From Patescibacteria group bacterium (GTDB lineage Bacteria > Patescibacteriota > Patescibacteriia > 2-12-FULL-57-11), in contig SCUL01000001.1 in the NCBI GenBank assembly GCA_004297205.1, positions 93,862 through 157,861 of the forward strand: a stretch of 64,000 nucleotides of DNA, read 5' to 3'. Made by a program: the position numbers and the translations under genes. Shown one piece after another: positions 12,979 through 62,099 of this stretch. Under the pieces are notes generated by a model, which saw nothing but the letters and a program-made list of their open reading frames with translations, did no database searches and was not told the origin of the DNA. Every line of letters starts with the position of its first letter. The first letter of the stretch is position 1.

Positions 12979-12993
12979 GTTCGGTTTCTGTTC
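12979..12993. promoter_or_regulatory. candidate LexA/SOS box, direct-repeat type GTTC-N7-GTTC
   Basis: gcGTTCggtttctGTTCgg lies ~45 nt upstream of the lexA ATG. Confidence 0.4.
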
Positions 12994-13005
12994 GGAAGAT
13001 ACTAC

Positions 13006-13020
13006 GAACAAGAACCGAAC
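13006..13020. promoter_or_regulatory. second candidate LexA box GAAC-N7-GAAC (same motif, opposite orientation)
   Basis: ctacGAACaagaaccGAACata lies 15 nt upstream of the lexA ATG. Confidence 0.4.
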
Positions 13021-13034
13021 ATACCCCCACGCCC

Positions 13035-13643
13035 ATGCTCACCAAAAAACAGAAGGCCATCCTCGACTACATCATCTCCTTCACCCAGGAGAACGACGGG
13101 CCGCCCAGCTACCGGGACATCGCCGACGCGGTGGGGCTCTCCTCCCCTGCCACGGTCCACGAACACGTCGACAACCTCCGTTCCAAGGGCTACCTCGTGA
13201 ACGAAGGCGACGGACGCGCCGCCACGGTCAACCCGACCTTCCTGCGCTTCGGCCGGGCGCTCGAACTGCCGCTGGCCGGCCTCATCACCGCCGGCTCCCC
13301 GATCGAAGCCGTGCAGGACACCAATGAGACCTTCGCCGTGCCGGCCAAGCTCGTGGTCGACGGCGCCAACTCCTACGTCCTCAAAGTCAAAGGACGCTCC
13401 ATGATCGAAGACGGGATCCTCGACGGCGACTACGTGGTCGTGGAGCGCAACCCCTCGCCCAAGAACGGCGACGTGGTGGTGGCCCTGCTCGACAACGCCT
13501 ACGCCACGCTCAAACGCTTCTACCGCGAACCGACCCGCATCCGCCTGCAGCCCGCCAACCGCGAGATGGAACCGATTTATGTGAAAGACGTGATCGTCCA
13601 AGGAGTCGTCCGCGCTGTCATCCGCCAGTTCGCAACGTCATAA
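13035..13643 (+). CDS. lexA: LexA repressor (SOS regulator)
   Basis: MLTKKQKAILDYI...PPSYRDIADAVGLSSPATVHEHV (winged HTH) and ...AGSPIEA...VKGRSMIEDGILDGDYVVV (S24 peptidase with Ser/Lys dyad). The start was moved to the internal Met, because the track N-terminal extension is K/R-rich junk. Confidence 0.85.
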   Translation: MLTKKQKAILDYIISFTQENDGPPSYRDIADAVGLSSPATVHEHVDNLRSKGYLVNEGDGRAATVNPTFLRFGRALELPLAGLITAGSPIEAVQDTNETFAVPAKLVVDGANSYVLKVKGRSMIEDGILDGDYVVVERNPSPKNGDVVVALLDNAYATLKRFYREPTRIRLQPANREMEPIYVKDVIVQGVVRAVIRQFATS

Positions 13644-14573: not shown

Positions 14574-16049
14574 TCAGGTCGCGGGGAGTCGCTTGAAGTC
14601 GTCGCGGACGACGAACTGCTCGTAGATGGCGTCCTCTCCCTCCTGCACCCAGTCTCGCCAGACGAAGCAGGACTCGAAGTCCGGATGGAACTTCTTCGTC
14701 TCGGCGTTCCGGATGTGCGGGACGCCCATCTGGAGGAGCATCTCCGGAAGCGAGGCGTTGATGCCTGCCATCTTCTTCGTCGCCTCCTGGACCGTGCGGT
14801 AGGCCTCCTCGGCAGGCATCCCCCGCTCCTTGAGGAACATCTCCACGCGCTGCGAGGCGATCGCGCCGCGCGTCATCTCCAGATTGGCGGCCATCCGCTG
14901 CGGGAAGACCTCCAACCCGTCGACGATGCCCGCGAAGCGGCGGAGCACGTAGACCAGCAGTCCGAAGGCGTCGGGGAGCGCCATGCGCTCCACCGAGCTG
15001 TGGCAGATGTCACGCTCGTGGCGCGTGTCCACGTTCTCCATGGTCGGCGTCGCCTGAGCGCGGATCTCGCGACACAGTCCCCGGATGTTCTCGAGACCGA
15101 TCGCGTTCCGCTTGTGCGGCATCGCGCTCGACCCCTTCTGATCCGGTGCGAACGGCTCGCAGACCTCCGCGATCTCGGTCCGCGTCAGGTCGTGGAGGTC
15201 GCCGGCGATCTTCTCGATCACCGCGGCGATCTCCGCGCAGGTGTTCACGAACTGCGCCAGCCGGTCGAGCGGCACGATCTGGGTGGCGATCACGGGCGGG
15301 AGCCCGAGGATCTCACCGACCCGCTTCTCGATGCGCGGCTTGAGCGTGGTGAAGAGGCCCACAGCCCCCGCCAGCTTCATGACCTCCGCTTCGAGGCGGG
15401 ACGCCGCGAAACGCGTTCGCGCCCGGAGGATCATGTCCAGATACCACAGGCACTTCACCCCGAAGGTGATGGGCTGGGCGTGCTGAACATGGGTGCGACC
15501 GACCATGAGCGTGCCACGGTGCGCCGACGCCTGCTTCCAGAGAGCCAGCGCGAGCGCCGCCAGGGCGGCGTCGATGATGTCGGCCGTACGGCGCAGGAGA
15601 AGCCCCTTGGCCGGCTCCTGCGTGTCGTACGACGTCATGCCGTCGTGGAACAGCCCGGCCTCCCGGCAGGTCACCTGGTCGAGCTGCGCCTTGAACTCGA
15701 CGTTCCAGGCCTTCTCGATAGCTTTGGGCGCCGCGCCCTCCCCGGTGAGCCGGGCGGCGATCTCATTGCACGCGGCGAGCGCGACCTCGAAGCGGCCGCC
15801 GATCTGCAGGCGCATCACCTCGATGAAGGCGTTGAGATCGTGCCTGATCCACTCGTCTCGGCGCTCCATGACGCCGACGACCACCGGATCAATCCAGGTG
15901 CGACGACGGACGTAGTCCGTCGTCTCGGCCGGGATCTCGTCGAACTCCTCGCGCGCCTGGAGAACAGCGATCTCCGTATCGCGCCAGGCGCCGAACTTGC
16001 TGACGTTCTCCCAAAGCTCCTGCACTTCGGTTTCGTACCGCGGAATCAT
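14574..16049 (-). CDS. purB: adenylosuccinate lyase
   Basis: GSSAMPHKRNAIGLE matches the fumarate-lyase signature. The start was placed at MIPRYETEVQELW, with GGAGGAGGA 6 nt upstream. Confidence 0.9.
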   Translation of the reverse strand: MIPRYETEVQELWENVSKFGAWRDTEIAVLQAREEFDEIPAETTDYVRRRTWIDPVVVGVMERRDEWIRHDLNAFIEVMRLQIGGRFEVALAACNEIAARLTGEGAAPKAIEKAWNVEFKAQLDQVTCREAGLFHDGMTSYDTQEPAKGLLLRRTADIIDAALAALALALWKQASAHRGTLMVGRTHVQHAQPITFGVKCLWYLDMILRARTRFAASRLEAEVMKLAGAVGLFTTLKPRIEKRVGEILGLPPVIATQIVPLDRLAQFVNTCAEIAAVIEKIAGDLHDLTRTEIAEVCEPFAPDQKGSSAMPHKRNAIGLENIRGLCREIRAQATPTMENVDTRHERDICHSSVERMALPDAFGLLVYVLRRFAGIVDGLEVFPQRMAANLEMTRGAIASQRVEMFLKERGMPAEEAYRTVQEATKKMAGINASLPEMLLQMGVPHIRNAETKKFHPDFESCFVWRDWVQEGEDAIYEQFVVRDDFKRLPAT

Positions 16050-16089
16050 GTTGTCCTCCTCCCCTCTTGTGGGGCGCCGCCACCCTACC

Positions 16090-16445
16090 GAAATCACCAT
16101 AAAAAAGAAACGGCCACTCTCACAGGAGAGCAGCCGCGACGGCCTCGATGGCCGCGATGATGCCGAGCGGTCAACGACCGAAGACGACGGCGGCCCAGAC
16201 GACCGATGCGACCGCCGCGCCGATCAGGAAGCCGTAGAACAACTGGCTCGTGACGACGTCGCGCGCGTTCTGCTTGAGTTGGTCGCGGGCGATCGCCAGC
16301 ACGTCCCGCCAGGTGAGTCGGAACATATCCGTATTCCTCCTTTCTGTCGCACGGACAGTCCGTTCTACCACAAAACCGCCTCCTCGTCAACCATGCGCCG
16401 CTTCATTTTCCACATCGACATGAATTCGTATTTCGCCTCGGTGGC
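16090..16445. repeat. tandem segmental duplication, copy A (~355 nt): 3' end and terminator of the membrane-protein gene, a decayed gene copy, and a dinB 5' fragment
   Basis: The ~80-nt block aatcaccataaaaaagaaacggccactctcacaggagagcagccgcgacg... and the 54-nt block atgcgccgcttcattttccacatcgacatgaattcgtatttcgcctcggtggc both recur in copy B. The interior is ~75-85% similar. Confidence 0.7.
16171..16326 (-). pseudogene. decayed paralog fragment of the downstream aromatic-rich membrane protein gene
   Basis: The 51-aa ORF MFRLTWRDVLAIARDQLKQ... shares its N-terminus with MFQFTWRDALSLVWDRL... of the 16476..17093 gene. After its TGA, the in-frame remnant PLGIIAAIEAVAAALL matches the paralog C-terminus GLLGIIAAVEVVAAALL. 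It still has an RBS AGGAGGA. Confidence 0.45.
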
Positions 16446-17214
16446 GGAATCACCATAAAAAAGAAACGGCCACTCTCACAGGAGAGCAGCCGCGACGACC
16501 TCGACGGCCGCGATGATGCCGAGCAGGCCGATCGCCAGCCCTGCGCCGCGCAGACCGCGCGGAGCGAACGCCGCGAGCACCAGGACCCGCAGCAGCATGA
16601 GCGGATAGTCGCTCGGGACCGGTCCCCACCAGTCGGCGTGCCACCAGATGTGCTCCGGGGCGAACCGGCCGAGCCCGTAGTGGGGGTTCCAGACGAACCA
16701 CAGGAAGTCCTCAAGGACCGCCAGCAGGTGCGACCACATCAGCGCCTCGGCCGCCCGGGACCAAGTGATCTTCACCCCGAAACAGAACGGGATGAAGAAC
16801 AGCAGGTTCCAGAGCGCGAAAGCGAAGACGTGGTAGCCGGTCATGGGTTTGCCGCCCATGGCCGCATCCCACAGCCGCGCGTACCACTCGTGTCCTTCCG
16901 GCCGCCAGCAGGGCAGCTCGCCGGCCCAGCCGTGCGCGCCCTCGATCTGGATCTCGAGGCCGGCGACGACCGTGGCCAGCACCGCCACGCAGGCGGCGCG
17001 CAGGATCATCTCGTTGCGGCCCTCGGCGTCCAGCCGGGGAACCAGGCGGTCCCAGACCAGGCTGAGTGCGTCCCGCCAGGTGAATTGGAACATGTCCGCT
17101 TCCTCTCTTTCTTTGCGTACGGACCGCGCCTTGTACCACAAAAATGTTTCCCCGTCAACCATGCGCCGCTTCATTTTCCACATCGACATGAATTCGTATT
17201 TCGCCTCGGTGGCC
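16446..17214. repeat. tandem segmental duplication, copy B (~770 nt), containing the intact membrane-protein gene and the true dinB start
   Basis: See copy A. The junction is ...gcctcggtggc|ggaatcaccat... Confidence 0.7.
16476..17093 (-). CDS. hypothetical Trp/aromatic-rich polytopic membrane protein (205 aa)
   Basis: Internal start MFQFTWRD with RBS GAGAGGAAG. W-rich segments such as HIWWHADWWGPVPSDYP. The upstream 77 codons of the track ORF overlap the dinB 5' region and are probably not translated. Confidence 0.6.
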   Translation of the reverse strand: MFQFTWRDALSLVWDRLVPRLDAEGRNEMILRAACVAVLATVVAGLEIQIEGAHGWAGELPCWRPEGHEWYARLWDAAMGGKPMTGYHVFAFALWNLLFFIPFCFGVKITWSRAAEALMWSHLLAVLEDFLWFVWNPHYGLGRFAPEHIWWHADWWGPVPSDYPLMLLRVLVLAAFAPRGLRGAGLAIGLLGIIAAVEVVAAALL

Positions 17215-18393
17215 TGCCAGGCGAATCCGTTTTTGCGCGGCAAAGCCTTCGGGGTGGGCGGCAAACCGGGGACGCGCGGCATCATCGCCGCGGCCAGCCG
17301 CGAAGCCAAGAAACGCGGCGTCAAAACCGCGATGAATTCCTACGAAGCACTGCTCATCTGCCCGGAACTGGAAATCATCCACGGCGACCCGCGCATGTAC
17401 AGCGACATCACCAACCGTTTTCTGCGCATCTTCCGCCGCCACACCGAAGAGGTCGAAGTCTTCTCACTCGACGAAGCCTTCCTCGATCTGACCGGCTGGG
17501 TGCGCAACCTGGCCGAGGCCATGGCCGTGGCCTGGAAGATCAAAACGGAGATGCGCGAAGAGCTGGGCGATGAGCTGACCTGCTCGATCGGCATCGCTGA
17601 GAACAAACTGCTGGCGAAACTCGGCAGCGACCTCAAAAAACCGGATGGCATCGTGGTGCTCACTGCGGACGGCGCGCGGCGGCTCTGGCCGCAGCTTCCG
17701 GTAACGGACCTCTGCGGCATCGCCGGACGGCTCGGAGCGCGGCTCAGCGGCCGCTTCGGCGTGGCCACGGCCGGAGACCTGGGCGCCGTGCCGGTCGACA
17801 AATTGATCGACGAGTTCGGCCCGGTCATGGGCTACCACCTGCACCTCATGGGCCGCGGCGAAGATCCGTCTCCCGTCATTTCCACGGTGGCCGCCGCCAA
17901 ATCCTACAGCCACTCCTACACCCTGCCGCGCGACCTGACCGACCGTGACGAGCTGCGCAAGGTGCTGTTCGCGTTGGCGGAAAAAGTCTGCCGCCGGATG
18001 CGCGAAGACGCCGCCTGCGGACGGGTCATCTCGGCCTACGTCCGCTACGGCGACTTCAGCGGCGAGGGCGGCCGGACCACGCTGGCCGCGCCGATCGACG
18101 ATGGACTGGCCTTGTTTCGCGAGGGCTGGCGCATCGTCAAACCGCTCATCGCACGCAAGCCGGTGCGCCTGTTCGGCATCGGACTCGGCGACATACGCCC
18201 GATCCAGCAGCAGGCGTCCCTGTTCGAGAAGGATAACAAACGCCGCCGGGTCGTAGCGGCGGCGGATGCGGCGAACGACAAGTGGGGCGAACGGACCGTG
18301 GAGCCAGCGGCGACGGCCGGCACGGTGCTCAAACGGCACGTCTCAGGGTTCCATCACGCTTTGCCCGTCCACGTACGTCGCAAGGGGTTCTGA
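17161..18393 (+). CDS. dinB: DNA polymerase IV (Y-family translesion polymerase)
   Basis: MRRFIFHIDMNSYFASVA...GIIAAASREAKKRGVKTAM...SLDEAFLDL are Y-family polymerase motifs. The start is at the internal Met of track ORF 16843..18393. Confidence 0.9.
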   Translation: MRRFIFHIDMNSYFASVACQANPFLRGKAFGVGGKPGTRGIIAAASREAKKRGVKTAMNSYEALLICPELEIIHGDPRMYSDITNRFLRIFRRHTEEVEVFSLDEAFLDLTGWVRNLAEAMAVAWKIKTEMREELGDELTCSIGIAENKLLAKLGSDLKKPDGIVVLTADGARRLWPQLPVTDLCGIAGRLGARLSGRFGVATAGDLGAVPVDKLIDEFGPVMGYHLHLMGRGEDPSPVISTVAAAKSYSHSYTLPRDLTDRDELRKVLFALAEKVCRRMREDAACGRVISAYVRYGDFSGEGGRTTLAAPIDDGLALFREGWRIVKPLIARKPVRLFGIGLGDIRPIQQQASLFEKDNKRRRVVAAADAANDKWGERTVEPAATAGTVLKRHVSGFHHALPVHVRRKGF

Positions 18394-18412: not shown

Positions 18413-18922
18413 TTAACGCTTCGCGCGGATCGTGGTGACGCCCAACTCGCTGTCGCAGGCGATCACTTCGATGCGGTTGCCGGACGTCTTATTGATGGCG
18501 TAGCGGGTATTTTCGGCCGTGCCCGTGTTCGGATCCATCGGGATCTCCGCCAGATAGGTTTCCACGAGGTCGCTGGTCAGATCGCTGCAGGCCGCCGTCA
18601 GAGATTCGACGGGGATGCCCGCACATGCCGTTGCATTGCAGCCGGTCGTCGCCGTACCGAGCATCTGGTAACTCGTCGCGAGCGCATCGATGTTCTTCGG
18701 GAACGTGTTGCGGTTGTCTTTCATGTACTCAAGCACGGCTTCCACGACGTCGCGCACGTCCTGGCGTCGGACCGCATTGCGCGCTTCCGCGAAGCGGCGC
18801 GCCGGGTCGACGGCGACCAGGATGACCGCGAAGAGAATGCCGATGATGCCGATGATGATGAGCAATTCAATGAGCGTGAACCCCTTCTGCTTCCGTTCCG
18901 TACGTATTTCTCCCCCCTGCAT
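18413..18922 (-). CDS. type IV pilin-like / pseudopilin protein (prepilin-type N-terminal cleavage/methylation domain)
   Basis: KGFTLIELLIIIGIIGILFAVILVAVDP is the prepilin signature G|FTLIEL. Confidence 0.8.
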   Translation of the reverse strand: MQGGEIRTERKQKGFTLIELLIIIGIIGILFAVILVAVDPARRFAEARNAVRRQDVRDVVEAVLEYMKDNRNTFPKNIDALATSYQMLGTATTGCNATACAGIPVESLTAACSDLTSDLVETYLAEIPMDPNTGTAENTRYAINKTSGNRIEVIACDSELGVTTIRAKR

Positions 18923-18978: not shown

Positions 18979-19482
18979 TCACCGGGCGGAATAGAGATCG
19001 GTGACCCCCGACTCCGGATCGCATGATCCGACGAGGACGCGCCCGTCGGCAGTGCGGTTGATGAAGTAGTCGGTGTTGGCGTCGGTCCCGGTTTTCGGGT
19101 CTTTCGGAACTTCGGCGATGTAGCCGCCGACCAGCGCGCCGCCGAGATCGAGACAGGAGGGAAGCGTCGTCGTCGCCGTGCAGGTGATGTCGCACCCCGA
19201 GGGAGCGGTGCCGATGACCTGCGAACTCGTGCCCGGGGAGTCGAGACCCGGCGGATCATTGCCGGTGTCGATCGTGAAGGCCAGCACCGCCTCCACGACG
19301 TCGCGCACGTCCTCGCGGCGGTTGGCGTTTCGCGTCTGCGCGAAACGGCCCGCCGGGTCGACGGCGACGAAGATGACGGAAAACAGGACGGCGACGATGC
19401 CGACGACCACGAGAAGCTCGATGAGGACGAATCCCTCGACGCGGCTCGGCGCACATGCTTTGTTGTGTCGCAGGTATCTCAT
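18979..19482 (-). CDS. type IV pilin-like protein, paralog 2
   Basis: EGFVLIELLVVVGIVAVLFSVIFVAVDP. Start placed at the internal Met MRYLRH. It is a tandem paralog of the adjacent pilin. Confidence 0.75.
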   Translation of the reverse strand: MRYLRHNKACAPSRVEGFVLIELLVVVGIVAVLFSVIFVAVDPAGRFAQTRNANRREDVRDVVEAVLAFTIDTGNDPPGLDSPGTSSQVIGTAPSGCDITCTATTTLPSCLDLGGALVGGYIAEVPKDPKTGTDANTDYFINRTADGRVLVGSCDPESGVTDLYSAR

Positions 19483-19517
19483 AGGAAAAATCTCGTTCCG
19501 TGCCGGCCCTGGGCGCC

Positions 19518-20789
19518 TCACGGCGTCATTTCGTCGAAAACGTCGTCGATCGTGGTCACGCCGGCAAGCACCTTGGCGATGCCGTCGTCGAACAAGGTGG
19601 TCATGCCCTTGCGGATGGCTTCCCGGCGGATGATGTCGGCGCCGGCCCGTGCCATGATCAGGTCGCGGATGGCCTCGTCCACCTCCATCGTCTCATAAAT
19701 GCCGACGCGGCCCAACGTGCCGCGGAAGCCGCAGGCGGCGCAGCCGACGCCTTTGGAGAGCTGGACCGTGCGCTTGCCCGCGAAGAGCGTCTTCTTTACG
19801 TCCTTCGGCAGGTTCTCCGGCAGCTGGTCTTCCTGGACGGTGTAGCTTTGGATGCAGTGGGGGCAGACGCGGCGCACCAGCCGCTGTGCGATGATGAGCG
19901 AAATCGTCGAGGCCATCAGGAACGGCGTGACGTTCATGTCCCGCAGGCGCGGAATGCACGCCGGCGCGTCGTTGGCGAGCAGTGCGGACAACACCAGATG
20001 GCCCGTGAGCGCGGCGTCGGCGGCGATGGAGGCGGTTTTCCGGTCGCGGATTTCCCCGACCATGATGACTTCGGGGTCCCGGCGGATGACGGACCGAAGC
20101 CCTTCGGCGAACGTCGGATGCGTTTCTGGGTTGACGTGGAGCTGGGTGACGTCGGCCAGTTGGTATTCGACCGGATCCTCGACGGTAGCGATGCCGGCCC
20201 CGCGTTCGTTCAGAACCTTCAACAGGGCGTAGAGCGTGGTCGTCTTGCCGGAGTCGGAGGGACCGGCGACGACGATCATGCCGAACGGACGGTCGAGGGC
20301 CGAGCGGACTTTTTTCATGTCTTCTTGGGACAATCCGAGGTCTTCGAGCGCATGCCGCCGGGACGTGCCGGCACGCAGCCGCATGATGACCTTTTCGCCT
20401 TCGATGACGGGGGTGGTCGAAACGCGGACGTCGACGCGCTGTTCGCCGGTCTTAATTTTGGCGAGGGTCTTGATGCGGGCGACGATCGGCTCGTGCAGCC
20501 GCTTCGGCAGGGTTACCACGTCGTGGAGCAGGCCGTCGACGCAGAACCGGACCGCCGTCTGCGTCTCCCGCGGCTCGATGTGGACGTCGGAGGCGCGGTT
20601 CTCGCAACCGTATGCCAGGATCGCATCGACGATCTTGACGATCGACGGATCTTCCGGATGGTGAACGCCGCCGACGGACCGGACCTGCGTGTCGATGAAC
20701 TTGGTGAACGCCGTTTCAAAGCCGGCCTCGGGGACCAATCCGAGGCCGAGCACCGTTTTTTTCAACGTGTCAGGAGCGACAAACGACAT
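19518..20789 (-). CDS. type II secretion / type IV pilus assembly ATPase (GspE/PilB family, short form)
   Basis: Walker A GPSDSGKTT, Walker B/Asp-box and His-box motifs, and a C-terminal CPHC...CAAC tetracysteine. Start at the internal Met, with GAGGGAGG upstream. Confidence 0.85.
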   Translation of the reverse strand: MSFVAPDTLKKTVLGLGLVPEAGFETAFTKFIDTQVRSVGGVHHPEDPSIVKIVDAILAYGCENRASDVHIEPRETQTAVRFCVDGLLHDVVTLPKRLHEPIVARIKTLAKIKTGEQRVDVRVSTTPVIEGEKVIMRLRAGTSRRHALEDLGLSQEDMKKVRSALDRPFGMIVVAGPSDSGKTTTLYALLKVLNERGAGIATVEDPVEYQLADVTQLHVNPETHPTFAEGLRSVIRRDPEVIMVGEIRDRKTASIAADAALTGHLVLSALLANDAPACIPRLRDMNVTPFLMASTISLIIAQRLVRRVCPHCIQSYTVQEDQLPENLPKDVKKTLFAGKRTVQLSKGVGCAACGFRGTLGRVGIYETMEVDEAIRDLIMARAGADIIRREAIRKGMTTLFDDGIAKVLAGVTTIDDVFDEMTP

Positions 20790-35085: not shown

Positions 35086-37744
35086 TCACGGCGCGCCGCC
35101 GGAGGGAAACGCCGAATGTTCATCAATCAACTCGCCGGGGGACGGCAGTCCAAGTTCTTCGTCGATGGTGGTCTCCGAGGGAACCGGCTCGACCGTGGCC
35201 ACGTCGGCGACGTTCTGCCCGATGACGTAGTCGCCGAAGAAGATCGTGTTCACGAGCCACACGCTCGTCTGCGCCCAGGTGGGACCGAACAAGGCCTGCA
35301 GCACTCCCTCGGAAATCACGCGGCGCAACGTCCGTTGCTGGGCCACGAGATGATACTCGAGCGTGGTGCGGACCTGGACGGCGCGGCCGGGACGGATCGT
35401 GACGTTTTGGCCCACCGGAAACCGCGCCAGATGGTAATTCGGCCACGTGCGGATCTGCGGGGCGTCGCCGAACCAGGAAACGAGCACGGACGGTTCCGGA
35501 AAGGTATGCCGCTTGAAGTCGGTGCCGATGTAGGCGACCTGTCCGGATTGGCCGCGGACCAGGTCGCCCGGATGCGGGTGGTAGACCTTTTCGACGGAAC
35601 AAATCTCGGGATAGGCGTCGAGGTCGAAGGACCATTCCTCTCCGACGGCTCCGCTGACGTCCGTCCACAGGGGGAGGTCGTCGACAGCGAGGTCTCCCGC
35701 AAACACCACAGCGCGCAGCGCGTAGGCGGCGGTCGAGGTGGCGGACGGGATGTGGGCGTACGCCTTGCTCTCGAAATGTTCGATGTGGACGATGACATCC
35801 TCGAACTGCCCGTCGCCGTCGGCGTCGAACGCGTACGACGTCTCCGACGCGGATACCGACTCCACCCGGACCGCCGCCGAACCCGGCTTCAACGCGCGGC
35901 CGTCGGGAAACACCAGATACGGCAGGACCGCGGCATGGGCGAAGTCGGCGATGCAGGCCTCGTCCAGTTCGGGCGCGACGATGCGGCCTTCGCGCAGTTC
36001 GTGCTCGTGCGGTGGTGCAGCGCAGTTGTTCGTGAGGTCGACGCGGATGGACTCCGATTGCACGGGCGAAACGTCGTACGACGGACTGCGGAATTGAAAG
36101 TACGTGCTGTAGTTGCCGTCTTCCGCCGGGAACTCCACGTCGGTGTCCGCCATGACGCCGTCGAAGTTCAGCCAGGGCAGGTTCTCCAGATCGCTCGTCG
36201 GGCCGACGCGATACCACGCGGCGCTGTGGGCATGAATATGCAGTGTCGCCGTCGCGTCCGGACTGCAGCCGCCCTCGAGGTAGTAGGCTTCGATCTCCGT
36301 CGGCGCGGAGCCTTCCGGTTCGGTGACGCGCGGTTGCGGCGGAGGTTCCGGAGCCGGCGGCGAACTGACCATGACGGCGTCCACATCGTCGTCGATGCCG
36401 ACGGCGCCATCCGGTGCGGCCGCGTTGTCCGAGACGGTGACGGTCCAGTCGCCGGCCGTCTCATCGGCGTACCAGAACGCCGCGCTCGAAGCACCGGGGC
36501 CGATGGTCCGCGAGGTGATGGCGGAACCGCCGGATGCGGCGTCATAGAAATGCGGACCGGAACCCGATGAATCGGTGTACAGGGAGACGGTGTCAGACCC
36601 CGTGGTCACCGGGTCGCCGTCCTGGTCGACGCGGGAGACGGCGTACGCGAGGCGCGTCCCGGCGGTCATGTCGCCGGGGTCGGTGAGCTGGAACGCGACG
36701 ACGTCATTGAGGTCGCTGGAAAGGATGGCAACTTTGGCGTTATCGTAATTTGCTACGGCAAGATCGACATCATTGTCCCCGTCAAGATCAGCGGGAAAAG
36801 CGGACCACGGACCGCTGCCCGCCGAATACTGCACGGCTGCGGCGAAGGTGCCGTTGCCGTTGTTGAGGAGGACGGAGACGTTGTCACTGTCATAATTCGC
36901 CGTGACAAGATCGCGGTCGCCGTCGCCGTCGAGATCGGCGGTGAAGACCGAGGGAGGATGGGTTCCCACGGCGTAGTTCACGGGCGAAGCGAACGTGCCG
37001 TCGCCGTTGTTGAGGAGGACGGAGACGTTCGTTATGGTTGTCGTAATTCGCGGTGGCGATATCGACGTCGCCGTCGCCGTCGAGATCGGCGGCGTCGAGC
37101 GCGATGGGATATGCGGTGATTCCGTAATGCACCGCCGCGGCGAAGGTGCCGTCGCCGTTGTTGAGGAGGACGGAGACCGACGCACCGAAATAATCCGCGA
37201 CGACCAAATCCTGGTCGTTGTCCCCGTCAACATCGACGGTCTGGACGGACGCCGGTACGTCCAGCACTCCGTACGCCACCGCCGCGGCGAAGGTGCCGTC
37301 GCCGCTGTTCAGAAGAACGGAAACGCTGTCGCTCATGAAATTCGTGGCGGCCAAATCGAGATCGAAATCGCCGTCGAGATCGGCGGCGAAGACCGAACTG
37401 GGCCTGCTCCCCACGGCGTAATTCACGCTGGCGGCGAAGGCGCCGTCGGCGTTGTTGAGGAGAACCGAAACGGTATTGCTGTTATAGTTCGCGACCGCCA
37501 GATCACGATCGCCGTCGCCGTCGAGATCGGCGGCGAAGACCGAGCGAGGATTGTTGCCTACATCGTATGAAATGGGAGACCCGAAAGCCGCGTAGCTTGC
37601 TTGGGGAGCAAGCAGCACGGAAATGGTGAACAGAGCCGTACTGGATACAAACCCAACGAGCATGCCGACGGCGACGCGTCCGACGCGCGAAACATCCTTC
37701 TTGGCACGGAAACGACGCGTCCGTTTGGCATGTGGTCGGGACAT
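35086..37744 (-). pseudogene. FG-GAP/VCBS repeat surface protein (~886 aa) broken by a +1 frameshift near 37033. Either a pseudogene or a sequencing error.
   Basis: Track ORFs 36890..37822 and 35086..37233 are two frames of one repeat protein (DLDGDGDRDLAVANYNSNTVSVLLNN...). At ~37030 the sequence reads aaccataacgAacgtctcc. Deleting one A restores ...ANYDNHNDVSVLLNNGDGTF. Confidence 0.6.
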
Positions 37745-59030: not shown

Positions 59031-59810
59031 ATGGGAAATTCCTATACAATTCCAATGTTAATCGCTATGCCAGAAGCAGTAGCTACAAAACGACGGATCC
59101 AGGGAGGGGTCGCTACGACCAACCTAGTCTTGTCAGCCCATGTAACGGGAAATGCCGATGTCTTCCCGACAGTTATTGATTTGCATGTGGCTCCGGGATC
59201 AAAGGTGGCTGACGTCACTTACGGAAAGGGTGTTTTTTGGAAAAAGGTTCCGCCGGGAAAGTACCAACTTTTCCCGAGCGATCTGAAAACCGGAATTGAT
59301 TGCACAAAATTACCCTACGAAAACGAGAGTCTTGATTGCGTCGTTCTTGATCCCCCCTACATGGAGGGGCTATTCCGCGGATCAAAGAATCAGCTGGCCG
59401 GATCTGGTACCCACGCAGCCTTCCGCGAAAACTATTCCAACGGTCAAGCATCCTCAATTGATGGGCCGAAATGGCACGACGCTGTTCTCGACCTGTACTT
59501 CCGTGCTGGCATCGAGGCCAGGAGGGTTCTAAGAAATGGCGGTACGCTCATCGTCAAATGCCAAGATGAAGTGAGCGCAAACAGGCAGAGACTTACTCAC
59601 GTTGAGATCATCAACGAGTACGTTGGGTATGGATACTACGCGAAAGATATTTTCGTAGTCGTACGGACGAACAGGCCGGTCATGAGCCGACTAAAGAAGC
59701 AGGTTCACGCTCGAAAAAACCATTCTTACTTCCTCGTGTTCGTGAAGGTCCCTGTCAACAAAAATCCGCGTCTTTATCGACCGCGAAGCAATTCGTCGAG
59801 CAACGGATAG
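59031..59810 (+). CDS. DNA methyltransferase (N6-adenine or N4-cytosine class, DPPY motif). Probable modification subunit of a type II R-M system.
   Basis: [10 protein letters not shown] (motif IV) followed by LAGSGT (motif I-like), which is a beta-class order. The gene is low-GC. Confidence 0.75.
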
Positions 59811-60569: not shown

Positions 60570-60616
60570 TGGCAGGGGCGGTAGGAATCGAACCCACGCA
60601 AGGGGTTTTGGAGACC
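60570..60616 (-). repeat. partial tRNA-Trp gene copy (3' 47 nt: acceptor, T-arm and part of the anticodon stem). An att-like direct repeat of the intact tRNA-Trp 1.4 kb away.
   Basis: tggcaggggcggtaggaatcgaacccacgcaaggggttttggagacc is identical to 62026..62072 and lies at the right edge of the low-GC island. Confidence 0.7.
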
Positions 60617-60689: not shown

Positions 60690-61877
60690 TCACCCCTTGA
60701 CGCAGAGCACCTGCTTGAGCTCGGCCACGATCTCGACCAGGTCCGCCTGGTTGGCCATCACCCGCTCGATGTCCTTGTAGGCCGCGGGGATCTCGTCGAG
60801 GACCCCTTCGTCCTTGCGGCACTCCACGCCGGCGGTCTGCGCGGCGAGGTCCGCCGTCGTGTAGGCCTTCTTGGCCTTGTTGCGGCTCATCCGCCGACCG
60901 GCGCCATGCGAGGCGCTCTGGTAGGACTCGGCGTTGCCGCGGCCGCGCACGATGTAGCTCTTCGCGCCCATCGACCCGGGGATGATCCCGAGATCGCCGG
61001 CACCCGCGCGGATCGCGCCCTTGCGGGTGATGAAGAGCTGCTCGCCGAAGTGCGTCTCCTCGGCCACGTAGTTGTGGTGGCAGAGTACCGGTGCCTCGCA
61101 GGTCATGTGCGGAAAGGACCCGCGCAGCACCGCGAGGCAGCGCTCCAGCATCACGGTCCGGTTGATCCGCGCGTACTCCTGCGCCCAGTAGAGGTCGCGT
61201 CGGTACGCGGCCATCTGGGGCGTTCCGGCGAGGAACACCGCGAGGTCGCGGTCCGGAAGCTCGGCGTTGTGGGCCAGCTTCTTGGCCGCGGCGATGTGGA
61301 AGTCGGCGAGCTCCTTGCCGATGTAGCGGCTGCCCGAGTGCAGCATCACCCACACCCGGCCCTCCGTGTCGAGACACAGCTCGACGAAGTGATTACCGCC
61401 GCCGAGCGTTCCGAGCTGCTTCGCAGCGCGGCTGGCCAGCTGCCCGACCTTCGGCGACAGCTCGGCGAACCGCGCCATGAGCTCGGCGCCGGCGCGAGCC
61501 GTCTCTGCCGCGCATGCCGCGAACACCGGCTCCTCGTAGGTGGCGAAGCCCACGGGGATCGCCGCCTCGATCGCGAGCCGAATCTCGCGCAGCGACTCCG
61601 GCAGGTCGCCCGCGGTGAGGTTGGTCCTCACCGCGCCCATGCCGCAGCCGATGTCGACACCGACCGCGGCCGGCGACACGGCGTCGCGCATGGCCACGAC
61701 GGAACCGACCGTCGCGCCCTTGCCGAAGTGGACGTCCGGCATGATGGCGACGTGGTGCACGCACCACGGCAACCGGGCGATGTTCTTCAGCTGCTCGAGC
61801 GCCTCGGCCTCGACGTCGGCGACGTCGGTCCAGAGCTTCACGGGTACCCGACCACCGACGATCTCACTGCGTGCCAT
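60690..61877 (-). CDS. rtcB: RNA-splicing ligase RtcB
   Basis: GGGNHF, HGAGR and MPDVHFGKGATVGS are RtcB motifs. 395 aa. High GC, host-like. Confidence 0.9.
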   Translation of the reverse strand: MARSEIVGGRVPVKLWTDVADVEAEALEQLKNIARLPWCVHHVAIMPDVHFGKGATVGSVVAMRDAVSPAAVGVDIGCGMGAVRTNLTAGDLPESLREIRLAIEAAIPVGFATYEEPVFAACAAETARAGAELMARFAELSPKVGQLASRAAKQLGTLGGGNHFVELCLDTEGRVWVMLHSGSRYIGKELADFHIAAAKKLAHNAELPDRDLAVFLAGTPQMAAYRRDLYWAQEYARINRTVMLERCLAVLRGSFPHMTCEAPVLCHHNYVAEETHFGEQLFITRKGAIRAGAGDLGIIPGSMGAKSYIVRGRGNAESYQSASHGAGRRMSRNKAKKAYTTADLAAQTAGVECRKDEGVLDEIPAAYKDIERVMANQADLVEIVAELKQVLCVKG

Positions 61878-62025: not shown

Positions 62026-62099
62026 TGGCAGGGGCGGTAGGAATCGAACCCACGCAAGGGGTTTTGGAGACCCCTGTACTACCATTATACGACGCCCCC
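62026..62099 (-). tRNA. tRNA-Trp (anticodon CCA), with the 3' CCA encoded
   Basis: The reverse complement GGGGGCGTCGTATAATGGTAGTACAGGGGTCTCCAAAACCCCTTGCGTGGGTTCGATTCCTACCGCCCCTGCCA folds as a cloverleaf. The anticodon loop is CTCCAAA and the T-loop is GGTTCGATTCC. Confidence 0.85.

Follow-up and report, generated by a model that had tools for sequence, protein, structure and literature searches.

Tandem paralogues that undergo concerted evolution through gene conversion resemble each other, in certain tracts, more closely than either resembles its orthologue. One-sided homologous recombination and single-crossover integration that duplicate 109-950 bp of the anchor have been documented (PMC3240628), and homology-facilitated illegitimate recombination was first described in Acinetobacter, S. 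pneumoniae and P. stutzeri, according to the works cited in PMC5361080. Displacement arrays have been proposed to leave fragments of displaced genes behind, as in the orphan fragments of type VI secretion system (T6SS) effector-immunity, Rhs and contact-dependent inhibition (CDI) loci (PMC5361080). Among assembly errors, haplotype false duplications are known from diploid eukaryote assemblies, where they usually come with gaps or overlapping contig ends (PMC9516828). The locus described here can be compared with each of these cases. It lies between purB and dinB in a stretch of 64,000 nucleotides (nt) of a Patescibacteria group bacterium (assembly GCA_004297205.1, contig SCUL01000001.1, positions 93,862 to 157,861), referred to below as the window, whose own numbering is used throughout. 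Between the two genes stand two head-to-tail units, A and B, each holding a membrane-protein gene, a divergent promoter region and the start of dinB. We propose, with a probability of roughly 0.45, that a recombination event brought together two old cassettes, alternative forms of one another, in head-to-tail order. The locus is an ordinary recombination product and represents no new mechanism or system.

As a whole, the locus resembles the products of one-sided homologous plus illegitimate recombination, or those of the concerted evolution of tandem paralogues. Like homology-facilitated illegitimate recombination, it combines a homologous anchor at one end (here dinB or a terminator block) with a putatively illegitimate join, nearly free of microhomology, at the other end and, as in single-crossover integration, the inserted DNA is flanked by a duplicated piece of the anchor (61 and 77 nt here). 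Unlike homology-facilitated illegitimate recombination, two blocks are duplicated instead of one, the microhomology amounts to 1-2 nt and the case is known from sequence alone; competence of the organism might be suspected solely from the pilin genes nearby. As in displacement arrays, an incoming module sharing a conserved segment with the resident would displace it and leave a truncated fragment, and alternative cassettes exist for one slot. However, there is no toxin-immunity logic here, the fragment is the 5′ end of a housekeeping-type gene for a translesion polymerase and the cassettes are only two. The locus shares with concerted evolution a block in A that equals its copy in B while related loci (L001, L084 and L085) differ, although the tracts are very short, abut a non-homologous junction and can be attributed to conversion only putatively. 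Finally, diverged alleles with identical flanks stand side by side as in haplotype false duplications, whereas here the novel junction has no gap, and no one k-mer size accounts for the lengths of the blocks.

Anatomy of the purB-dinB interval

The window reads purB, unit A, unit B and dinB. This head-to-tail arrangement had been proposed from the letters of the window without database searches (the sequence-only reading), and it is confirmed by repeat finding, global alignment and BLAST (Table 1). When unit A was compared with the whole window by BLAST, three matches were found, all in unit B. The left blocks, made of a gene 3′ end and its terminator, are identical at 75 of 77 nt (97.4%, E=1e-34), and the right blocks, which hold the dinB start, at all 61 nt (E=6e-30), in agreement with the near-identical ends noted before. 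The third match, between 16302-16331 and 17069-17098, covers 30 nt, 27 of which are identical. Beyond these three, unit A has no significant match in the window, and its interior has no second copy there. At the two mismatches of the left block (16142 and 16149), the related locus L001 carries the base of unit B, hence both changes arose in A. On its left side, the duplication breaks off at the edge of the conserved purB spacer.

Both left blocks contain an identical 12-bp hairpin followed by a T-run. The predicted RNA fold of the terminator is -22.1 kcal/mol in unit A (z=-4.0) and -20.4 kcal/mol behind the 205-amino acid (aa) gene of unit B (z=-3.5). In unit A, the TGA stop of a 51-aa open reading frame (ORF) is followed in frame by 16 codons that match the C-terminus encoded in unit B, and the unit ends in a dinB stub of 21 codons. 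The ORF, the match after its stop and the stub are all as first described, and so are the flanking genes, now identified as purB by TIGR00928 and as dinB by the Pfam families IMS and IMS_C. A perfect 13-nt palindrome, ACGGACAGTCCGT, is present at 16351-16363 in the intergenic region of unit A; it has no other exact occurrence in the window and is degenerate in unit B and in all relatives.

At the junction between the units, microhomology is restricted to 1-2 nt (C16445 and G16446), with a mismatch at 16447. The predicted RNA fold of the stub and junction is unexceptional (z=-2.0), and no conservation of either was found in the relatives compared. Over the dinB start, A and B are identical at 53 of 53 nt; the number of differences in 54 nt is 2 for L084, 3 for L085 and 5 for L001. 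The sequence-only reading had offered a functional constraint on the dinB 5′ region as one explanation of this identity. Across lineages the dinB 5′ end is identical at 51-52 of 54 nt, but several other 54-nt segments of dinB are conserved at least as well; no evidence was found of a functional constraint on the stub itself. We tentatively regard the 21-codon stub as a non-functional by-product of the joining.

The junction also creates a hairpin at 16430-16450, ATTTCGCC-TCGGT-GGCGGAAT, in which the parental A in place of G16447 would render both 8-nt arms perfectly complementary. This hairpin could be due to chance or could be a clue to how the join was formed.

Mosaic divergence between the units

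Between the shared ends, the two units are far less alike than the ~75-85% similarity first estimated. Only the first 30 coding nt (10 codons, ~90% identity) and the 66-nt intergenic region of the interior can be aligned, the latter at 67% identity in a MAFFT alignment and 76% in a gapped pairwise alignment. Some 125 nt of unit A (16169-16296; codons 11-51) match unit B at 43% without gaps, which is chance level and is equalled at other offsets, and 411 nt of unit B have no counterpart in unit A.

The start-plus-intergenic segment is identical at 62 of 83 positions and the dinB block at 61 of 61, a significant difference (Fisher p=4e-6). The ORF of unit A, compared over 153 nt, is 59-64% identical to the small genes of other lineages versus 51% to the start of the gene in unit B, and its intergenic region is 80-82% identical to the small-gene intergenic regions of L084 and L085 versus 76% to that of unit B. 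Unit A is, in its interior, as distant from B as are the orthologous regions of other species.

A simple tandem that was duplicated and then diverged would account for the adjacent direct units and the one novel junction that are seen, but it fails because divergence along the units is not uniform. Instead, ends of 97-100% identity enclose a diverged interior, and the copies within this genome are identical in a tract where orthologues differ, as gene conversion would produce. The suggestion that recombination or gene conversion lies behind the identical ends is thereby upheld. Judged from these divergences, the shared ends must be young relative to the cassette interiors, and units A and B themselves must be old.

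A conserved small gene beside dinB

The 51-aa ORF had been interpreted as the decaying remnant of a local duplicate. Its open frame is weak evidence for a gene, since a stop-free frame of 51 codons arises by chance in 50% of windows in this genome, and a word-indexed protein search with the ORF alone returned no match. When 1.84 billion representative proteins were searched exhaustively with phmmer, a single full-length homologue of 51 aa came up (P0121, E=2e-4), and a two-sequence profile then recovered P0122 (51 aa) and P0123 (52 aa), with E-values from 1e-28 to 3e-15 across P0121-P0123. These homologues are 43-47% identical to the ORF of the window. All four proteins start with MF..(T/S)W.D.L and end with ...AS(V/A)(V/I)W..(V/A)(V/A)FGR followed by the stop, their alignment has 15 invariant columns, and the ratio of non-synonymous to synonymous substitution rates (dN/dS) among members is 0.45-0.7, over just 51 codons.

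The ORF is also preceded, 7-8 nt upstream, by a strong Shine-Dalgarno sequence, AAGGAGGA, and its GC content at codon positions 1, 2 and 3 (0.65, 0.43 and 0.90) is like that of purB and of the 205-aa gene. For residues 32-50 of its product, a transmembrane helix is predicted (Kyte-Doolittle 2.16), and the three family members tested are all predicted to have a hydrophobic helix there. On the strength of its homologues, the ORF is a conserved gene, a member of a 51-52-aa family adjoining dinB that is present in three other lineages, and its description as a decaying remnant does not stand. The family is uncharacterised, and gene callers mostly miss it. In L084, L085 and L086-L091, the small gene is divergent from dinB across a homologous intergenic region; in the window, its neighbour is the stub.

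The small gene is related to the long one. P0122 aligns without gaps to residues 1-43 of the 205-aa protein (37% identity, E=1e-6), which form a lineage-specific N-terminal extension and the first transmembrane helix, leading to the LEIQIEG motif. In addition, the 77-nt block and the region behind the L086 small gene have hairpins that align with each other, and unit A has 30 extra nt of long-gene tail. The collinear N-terminus and the homologous terminator thus point to an old internal deletion in the long gene. As read from these alignments, the small gene is an ancient derivative that keeps the extension, the first helix, the terminator and the promoter region of the long gene.

One slot, two cassettes in related genomes

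The comparison of one versus two copies in related genomes, suggested by the sequence-only reading, was carried out, and the relatives have a single cassette. In L084, the small gene is divergent from a dinB that is intact beyond codon 18. L085 has the order lexA, 82-aa gene, small gene and dinB, without purB and without the 205-aa gene, and its dinB is 92% identical to that of the window. Six assemblies from a Hainich groundwater population (L086-L091) share the order lexA, 72-aa gene, 82-aa gene, purB, small gene, dinB, Wzy/TPR gene and pilins, a gene neighbourhood much like that of the window. The long gene occupies the slot in L001, as a single copy between purB and dinB (its protein is 83% identical to that of the window), and in L002, where it is divergent from dinB. 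The small and the long genes are positional alternatives in one slot, and both occur together only in the window.

Between the window and L086, purB is 45% identical, compared with 73% for lexA, 74% for the pilin and 76% for dinB. The gene is found at 5256-6710 in L086 and is absent from the slot in L085; together, the low identity and the absence indicate that the locus is a recombination hot spot. Despite the 45% identity of purB, the spacer between the terminator and purB (…CGCCGC(C/T)ACCCTACCGAA…) is conserved in L001 and L086.

An independent dinB 5′ stub, of 12 codons, lies next to the small gene at 4854-4935 of L086 and is also present in L087-L091. It reads in the order ATGCGCCGCGTCATTTTCCATATCGAC, a 32-nt element CCTTCGACTCGCTGCGCTTCGCTCAGGGCAGG, CATGAACTCG, CCTC and the true dinB start ATGAAACGC, and it is identical in the six separate assemblies. 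The 32-nt element has no occurrence in the window. Compared with the functional dinB start in L001, the stub is identical at 34 of 36 positions, and it is far from the one in L086 itself; for this reason such stubs look like recent scars of allele replacement, and the independent origin of this one suggests that illegitimate joins within the dinB start recur in the clade.

Origin of the tandem

The preferred history starts from a clade in which the slot next to dinB holds either a long cassette (the 205-aa gene with its divergent promoter region) or a short one (the 51-52-aa gene). It supposes that, in a single recombining population, the two alleles had their flanks in common, and the near-identical ends of 77 and 61 nt would be these shared flanks. 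We infer that the alleles came first and that a recent event then fused them, codon 18 of dinB in a copy with the short cassette becoming linked to a position 2 nt past the terminator T-run in a copy with the long cassette. The fusion could have come about by unequal illegitimate exchange, by one-sided homologous recombination, or by the integration of a circularised fragment from a close relative through a single crossover. An anchor for such an event is present in relatives, where the alternative cassette stands beside a dinB start that is 94-96% identical and beside a homologous terminator. The locus would then be one genome caught with both ancient cassettes, and the stubs would be the scars of recurring joins in a conserved gene start. 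It offers a clean, small example of gene-content turnover in candidate-phyla-radiation genomes.

Several points weigh against such a joining. In searches of proteins, metagenome DNA and species-representative genomes, the two cassettes were found in tandem in no other genome. That the junction is recent would depend solely on the identity of short blocks (0 of 61 and 2 of 77 differences), and because the dinB 5′ end evolves slowly (2-3 of 54 differences between lineages), zero differences in the stub are only moderately surprising if it belonged to a working dinB until recently. The microhomology at the junction is minimal. Furthermore, the short-cassette allele needs a long-gene tail 96% identical to that of its neighbour, which requires homogenisation of the flanks within a recombining population.

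The sequence-only reading had favoured a tandem duplication with gene conversion or recombination between the repeats. Set out in full, this becomes an old duplication, retained in this lineage, that took in the entire long unit from its terminator as far as codon 18 of dinB. We consider this rather unlikely, although it has real merits. The copy on the purB side would have become the small gene by internal deletion, gene conversion would keep the ends nearly identical, and relatives would have lost either copy by recombination between the two left or the two right repeats. The origin of the small gene, with its collinear N-terminus, the 205-type tail after its stop and the terminator of L086, would fall under one scheme, and simple repeat-mediated deletions would yield every single-cassette state of the relatives. 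The block boundaries would also be natural limits of homology (the junction and the deletion breakpoint), and both left-block mismatches arose in A, in keeping with drift after the most recent conversion. However, direct repeats of 61-77 nt flanking 0.3-0.7 kb are prone to deletion, so that long retention needs selection on both genes, and conversion would not be expected to run right up to the base (16445) that adjoins a non-homologous junction. Likewise, the likeness of the L086 stub to the L001 start makes the stubs of the clade look young, and no other carrier of the tandem is known. A recent joining of alleles is weakly favoured over an old tandem with gene conversion, on account of the instability of short repeats, the recombination hot spot and the independent stub of L086-L091.

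Alternatively, the assembler or scaffolder could have strung together two co-occurring strains with identical purB and dinB flanks, the first carrying the short cassette and the second the long one. The sequence comes from a metagenome-assembled genome, both cassette types are found in nature in the same slot, and identical ends around diverged interiors are the signature of false duplication from mixed haplotypes (PMC9516828). Moreover, the mismatch G16447 is directly beside the junction. The default k-mer sizes of SPAdes commonly have 77 as the largest, and the left block is exactly 77 nt long. An assembly artefact is nevertheless unlikely. The adjacency GTGGC/GG/AATCACC exists in neither haplotype, hence k-mers spanning the junction must be present in the reads. 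At 77 and 61 nt, the blocks are unequal in length, and the left one contains two mismatches, so that no single exact k-mer overlap fits; the junction contains no Ns; nothing similar occurs elsewhere in the 64-kb window, save for a duplicated tRNA-Trp 3′ part around rtcB; and the comparable dinB stub of another lineage is reproduced in six independent assemblies. If the tandem were an artefact, it would be a useful warning about strain mixtures in metagenome-assembled genomes.

Models of k-mer false duplication were reasoned through for k = 55, 59-62 and 77-80, and none yields both block lengths and the junction. Look-ups of the exact 205-aa, dinB and purB proteins found no independent contig on record.

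A functional device, in which selection would maintain the dinB 5′ duplicate and the repeats, is very improbable. The duplicate could provide an upstream promoter with a leader peptide, an antisense transcript over the 205-aa gene or a repeat-mediated promoter switch. In line with such roles, the stub retains its start codon and the 8 nt upstream without a change, behind a promoter-type region that is intact and contains a strong palindrome. Judging from the anatomy, transcripts that start in unit A would run antisense through the 205-aa gene into dinB, and both single-cassette states of relatives would follow from deletion between either pair of blocks, right or left. If the tandem were a contingency switch toggling the expression of the error-prone polymerase and of its membrane-protein neighbour, which we would hardly credit, recombination at the 61-nt block would delete the long cassette and place dinB under the promoter region of the short one, recombination at the 77-nt block would remove the short cassette and the stub, and the stub and repeats would be retained because the intermediate state is useful. 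Against any such device, stub and junction are conserved in no other genome examined, relatives manage on one stub-free cassette, the dinB start is no more conserved than several other parts of the gene, the fold of the stub junction is unexceptional at z=-2.0 and no sigma-70-type promoter was detected.

Other candidates were rejected. The A/B differences are of all kinds and include the 411-nt gap, and are not adenine-biased as those of a diversity-generating retroelement would be; no reverse-transcriptase search was made. A mobile-element origin of unit A was dropped, as the unit matched nothing among phage records, plasmid records and viral contigs. A scan of metagenome DNA with a 22-nt pattern from unit A gave one match, a chance hit in an unrelated arsenic-resistance contig (L003).

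The 205-aa membrane-protein family

The protein encoded by the long gene is identical to 'hypothetical protein EPO33_00625' and matches no Pfam or NCBIfam model. It has 122 protein homologues, and 324 loci of the family were found in species-representative genomes, none of them above 45-48% identity. The family occurs in Patescibacteria, Dehalococcoidia, Planctomycetota, Labrys, Geobacter and Glaciimonas, and its invariant positions include E47, E51, G55-W56, P61-C62-W63-R64-P65, G86-Y87-H88, D129-F130, W132 and N136. It is thus a widespread, uncharacterised membrane family without a Pfam or NCBIfam model, marked by invariant Glu, Cys-Trp-Arg-Pro, His and Asp. The neighbours were examined at 80 of the 324 loci (L004-L083), and none has dinB, purB or lexA nearby; given the absence of dinB, the pairing of the 205-aa gene with dinB appears specific to a narrow clade.

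Flanking genes and other features of the window

Table 1. Features of the purB-dinB interval, in window coordinates
Feature	Position	Strand	Description	Evidence
purB	14574..16049	-	Adenylosuccinate lyase	TIGR00928, 333 bits versus cut-off 326; Pfam Lyase_1
Spacer upstream of purB	16050..16089		…CGCCGCCACCCTACC…; conserved, just outside the repeat	Alignment with L001 and L086
Unit A	16090..16445		Short cassette, 356 nt	Repeat finding, global alignment, BLAST
Left block, copy 1	16092..16168		Terminator and final 16 codons of a 205-aa-type gene	BLAST
Intrinsic terminator, unit A	16100..16137	-	12-bp stem at 16110-16137, then TTTCTTTTTT	Terminator scan
In-frame tail after the stop of the 51-aa ORF	16120..16170	-	PLGIIAAIEAVAAALL*, from the 205-aa C-terminus	Translation
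51-aa small membrane-protein gene	16171..16326	-	Including TGA stop	Homologues, GC periodicity, Shine-Dalgarno
Intergenic region, unit A	16327..16392		Divergent promoter region, 66 nt	
Right block, copy 1	16385..16445		8 nt upstream and dinB nt 1-53	BLAST
dinB stub	16393..16458	+	MRRFIFHIDMNSYFASVAESP*; 21 codons: 18 of dinB, then E-S-P and stop from the junction	
Novel junction	16445..16448		…GTGGC/GG/AATCACC…; one mismatch, G16447 versus A16091	
Unit B	16446..17213		Long cassette, 768 nt	Repeat finding, global alignment, BLAST
Left block, copy 2	16448..16524		3′ end of the 205-aa gene and terminator	BLAST
Intrinsic terminator, 205-aa gene	16456..16493	-		Terminator scan
205-aa membrane-protein gene	16476..17093	-	N-terminal extension homologous to the small protein	
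Intergenic region, unit B	17094..17160		Divergent promoter region of the 205-aa gene and dinB	
Right block, copy 2	17153..17213		Functional dinB start	BLAST
dinB, intact	17161..18393	+	Y-family DNA polymerase IV, 410 aa	IMS PF00817 5.7e-41; IMS_C PF11799 8e-22

The intact dinB is also matched by the NCBIfam DNA polymerase IV models at 276 bits, under their equivalog cut-offs. Directly after it stand two pilin-like paralogues, 18413-18922 and 18979-19521, which share 75% identity over 178 nt; Pfam N_methyl matches the first, and the pair is also present in L086-L088. On the other side of the interval, an inverted repeat, GTTCGGTTTCTGTTCG … CGAACAAGAACCGAAC, is located at 12979-13020, just upstream of lexA (ATG at 13036), and is a candidate LexA operator. 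Control of dinB by LexA was considered and dropped, as neither dinB upstream region contains a similar motif and the palindrome of unit A is not conserved in relatives.

Further along the window, an exact direct repeat of 47 nt is present at 60570-60616 and 62026-62072, the second copy being the 3′ part of tRNA-Trp (62026-62099, minus strand). This is the only tRNA, and the only match of any kind, in an Rfam scan of the window. The repeats bracket a 1.4-kb segment holding only rtcB (60690-61877, Pfam RtcB 5.5e-125), and to the left of the first copy lie a low-GC DNA methylase gene (59031-59810, N6_N4_Mtase) and an ORF of 192 aa without a family match; the GC content at 56-60 kb of the window is 0.53-0.58. 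The repeat looks like an att-type duplication from integration at the tRNA. At 36680-37619, six tandem units of ~147 nt, 62-75% identical to one another, presumably encode a protein repeat of 49 aa.

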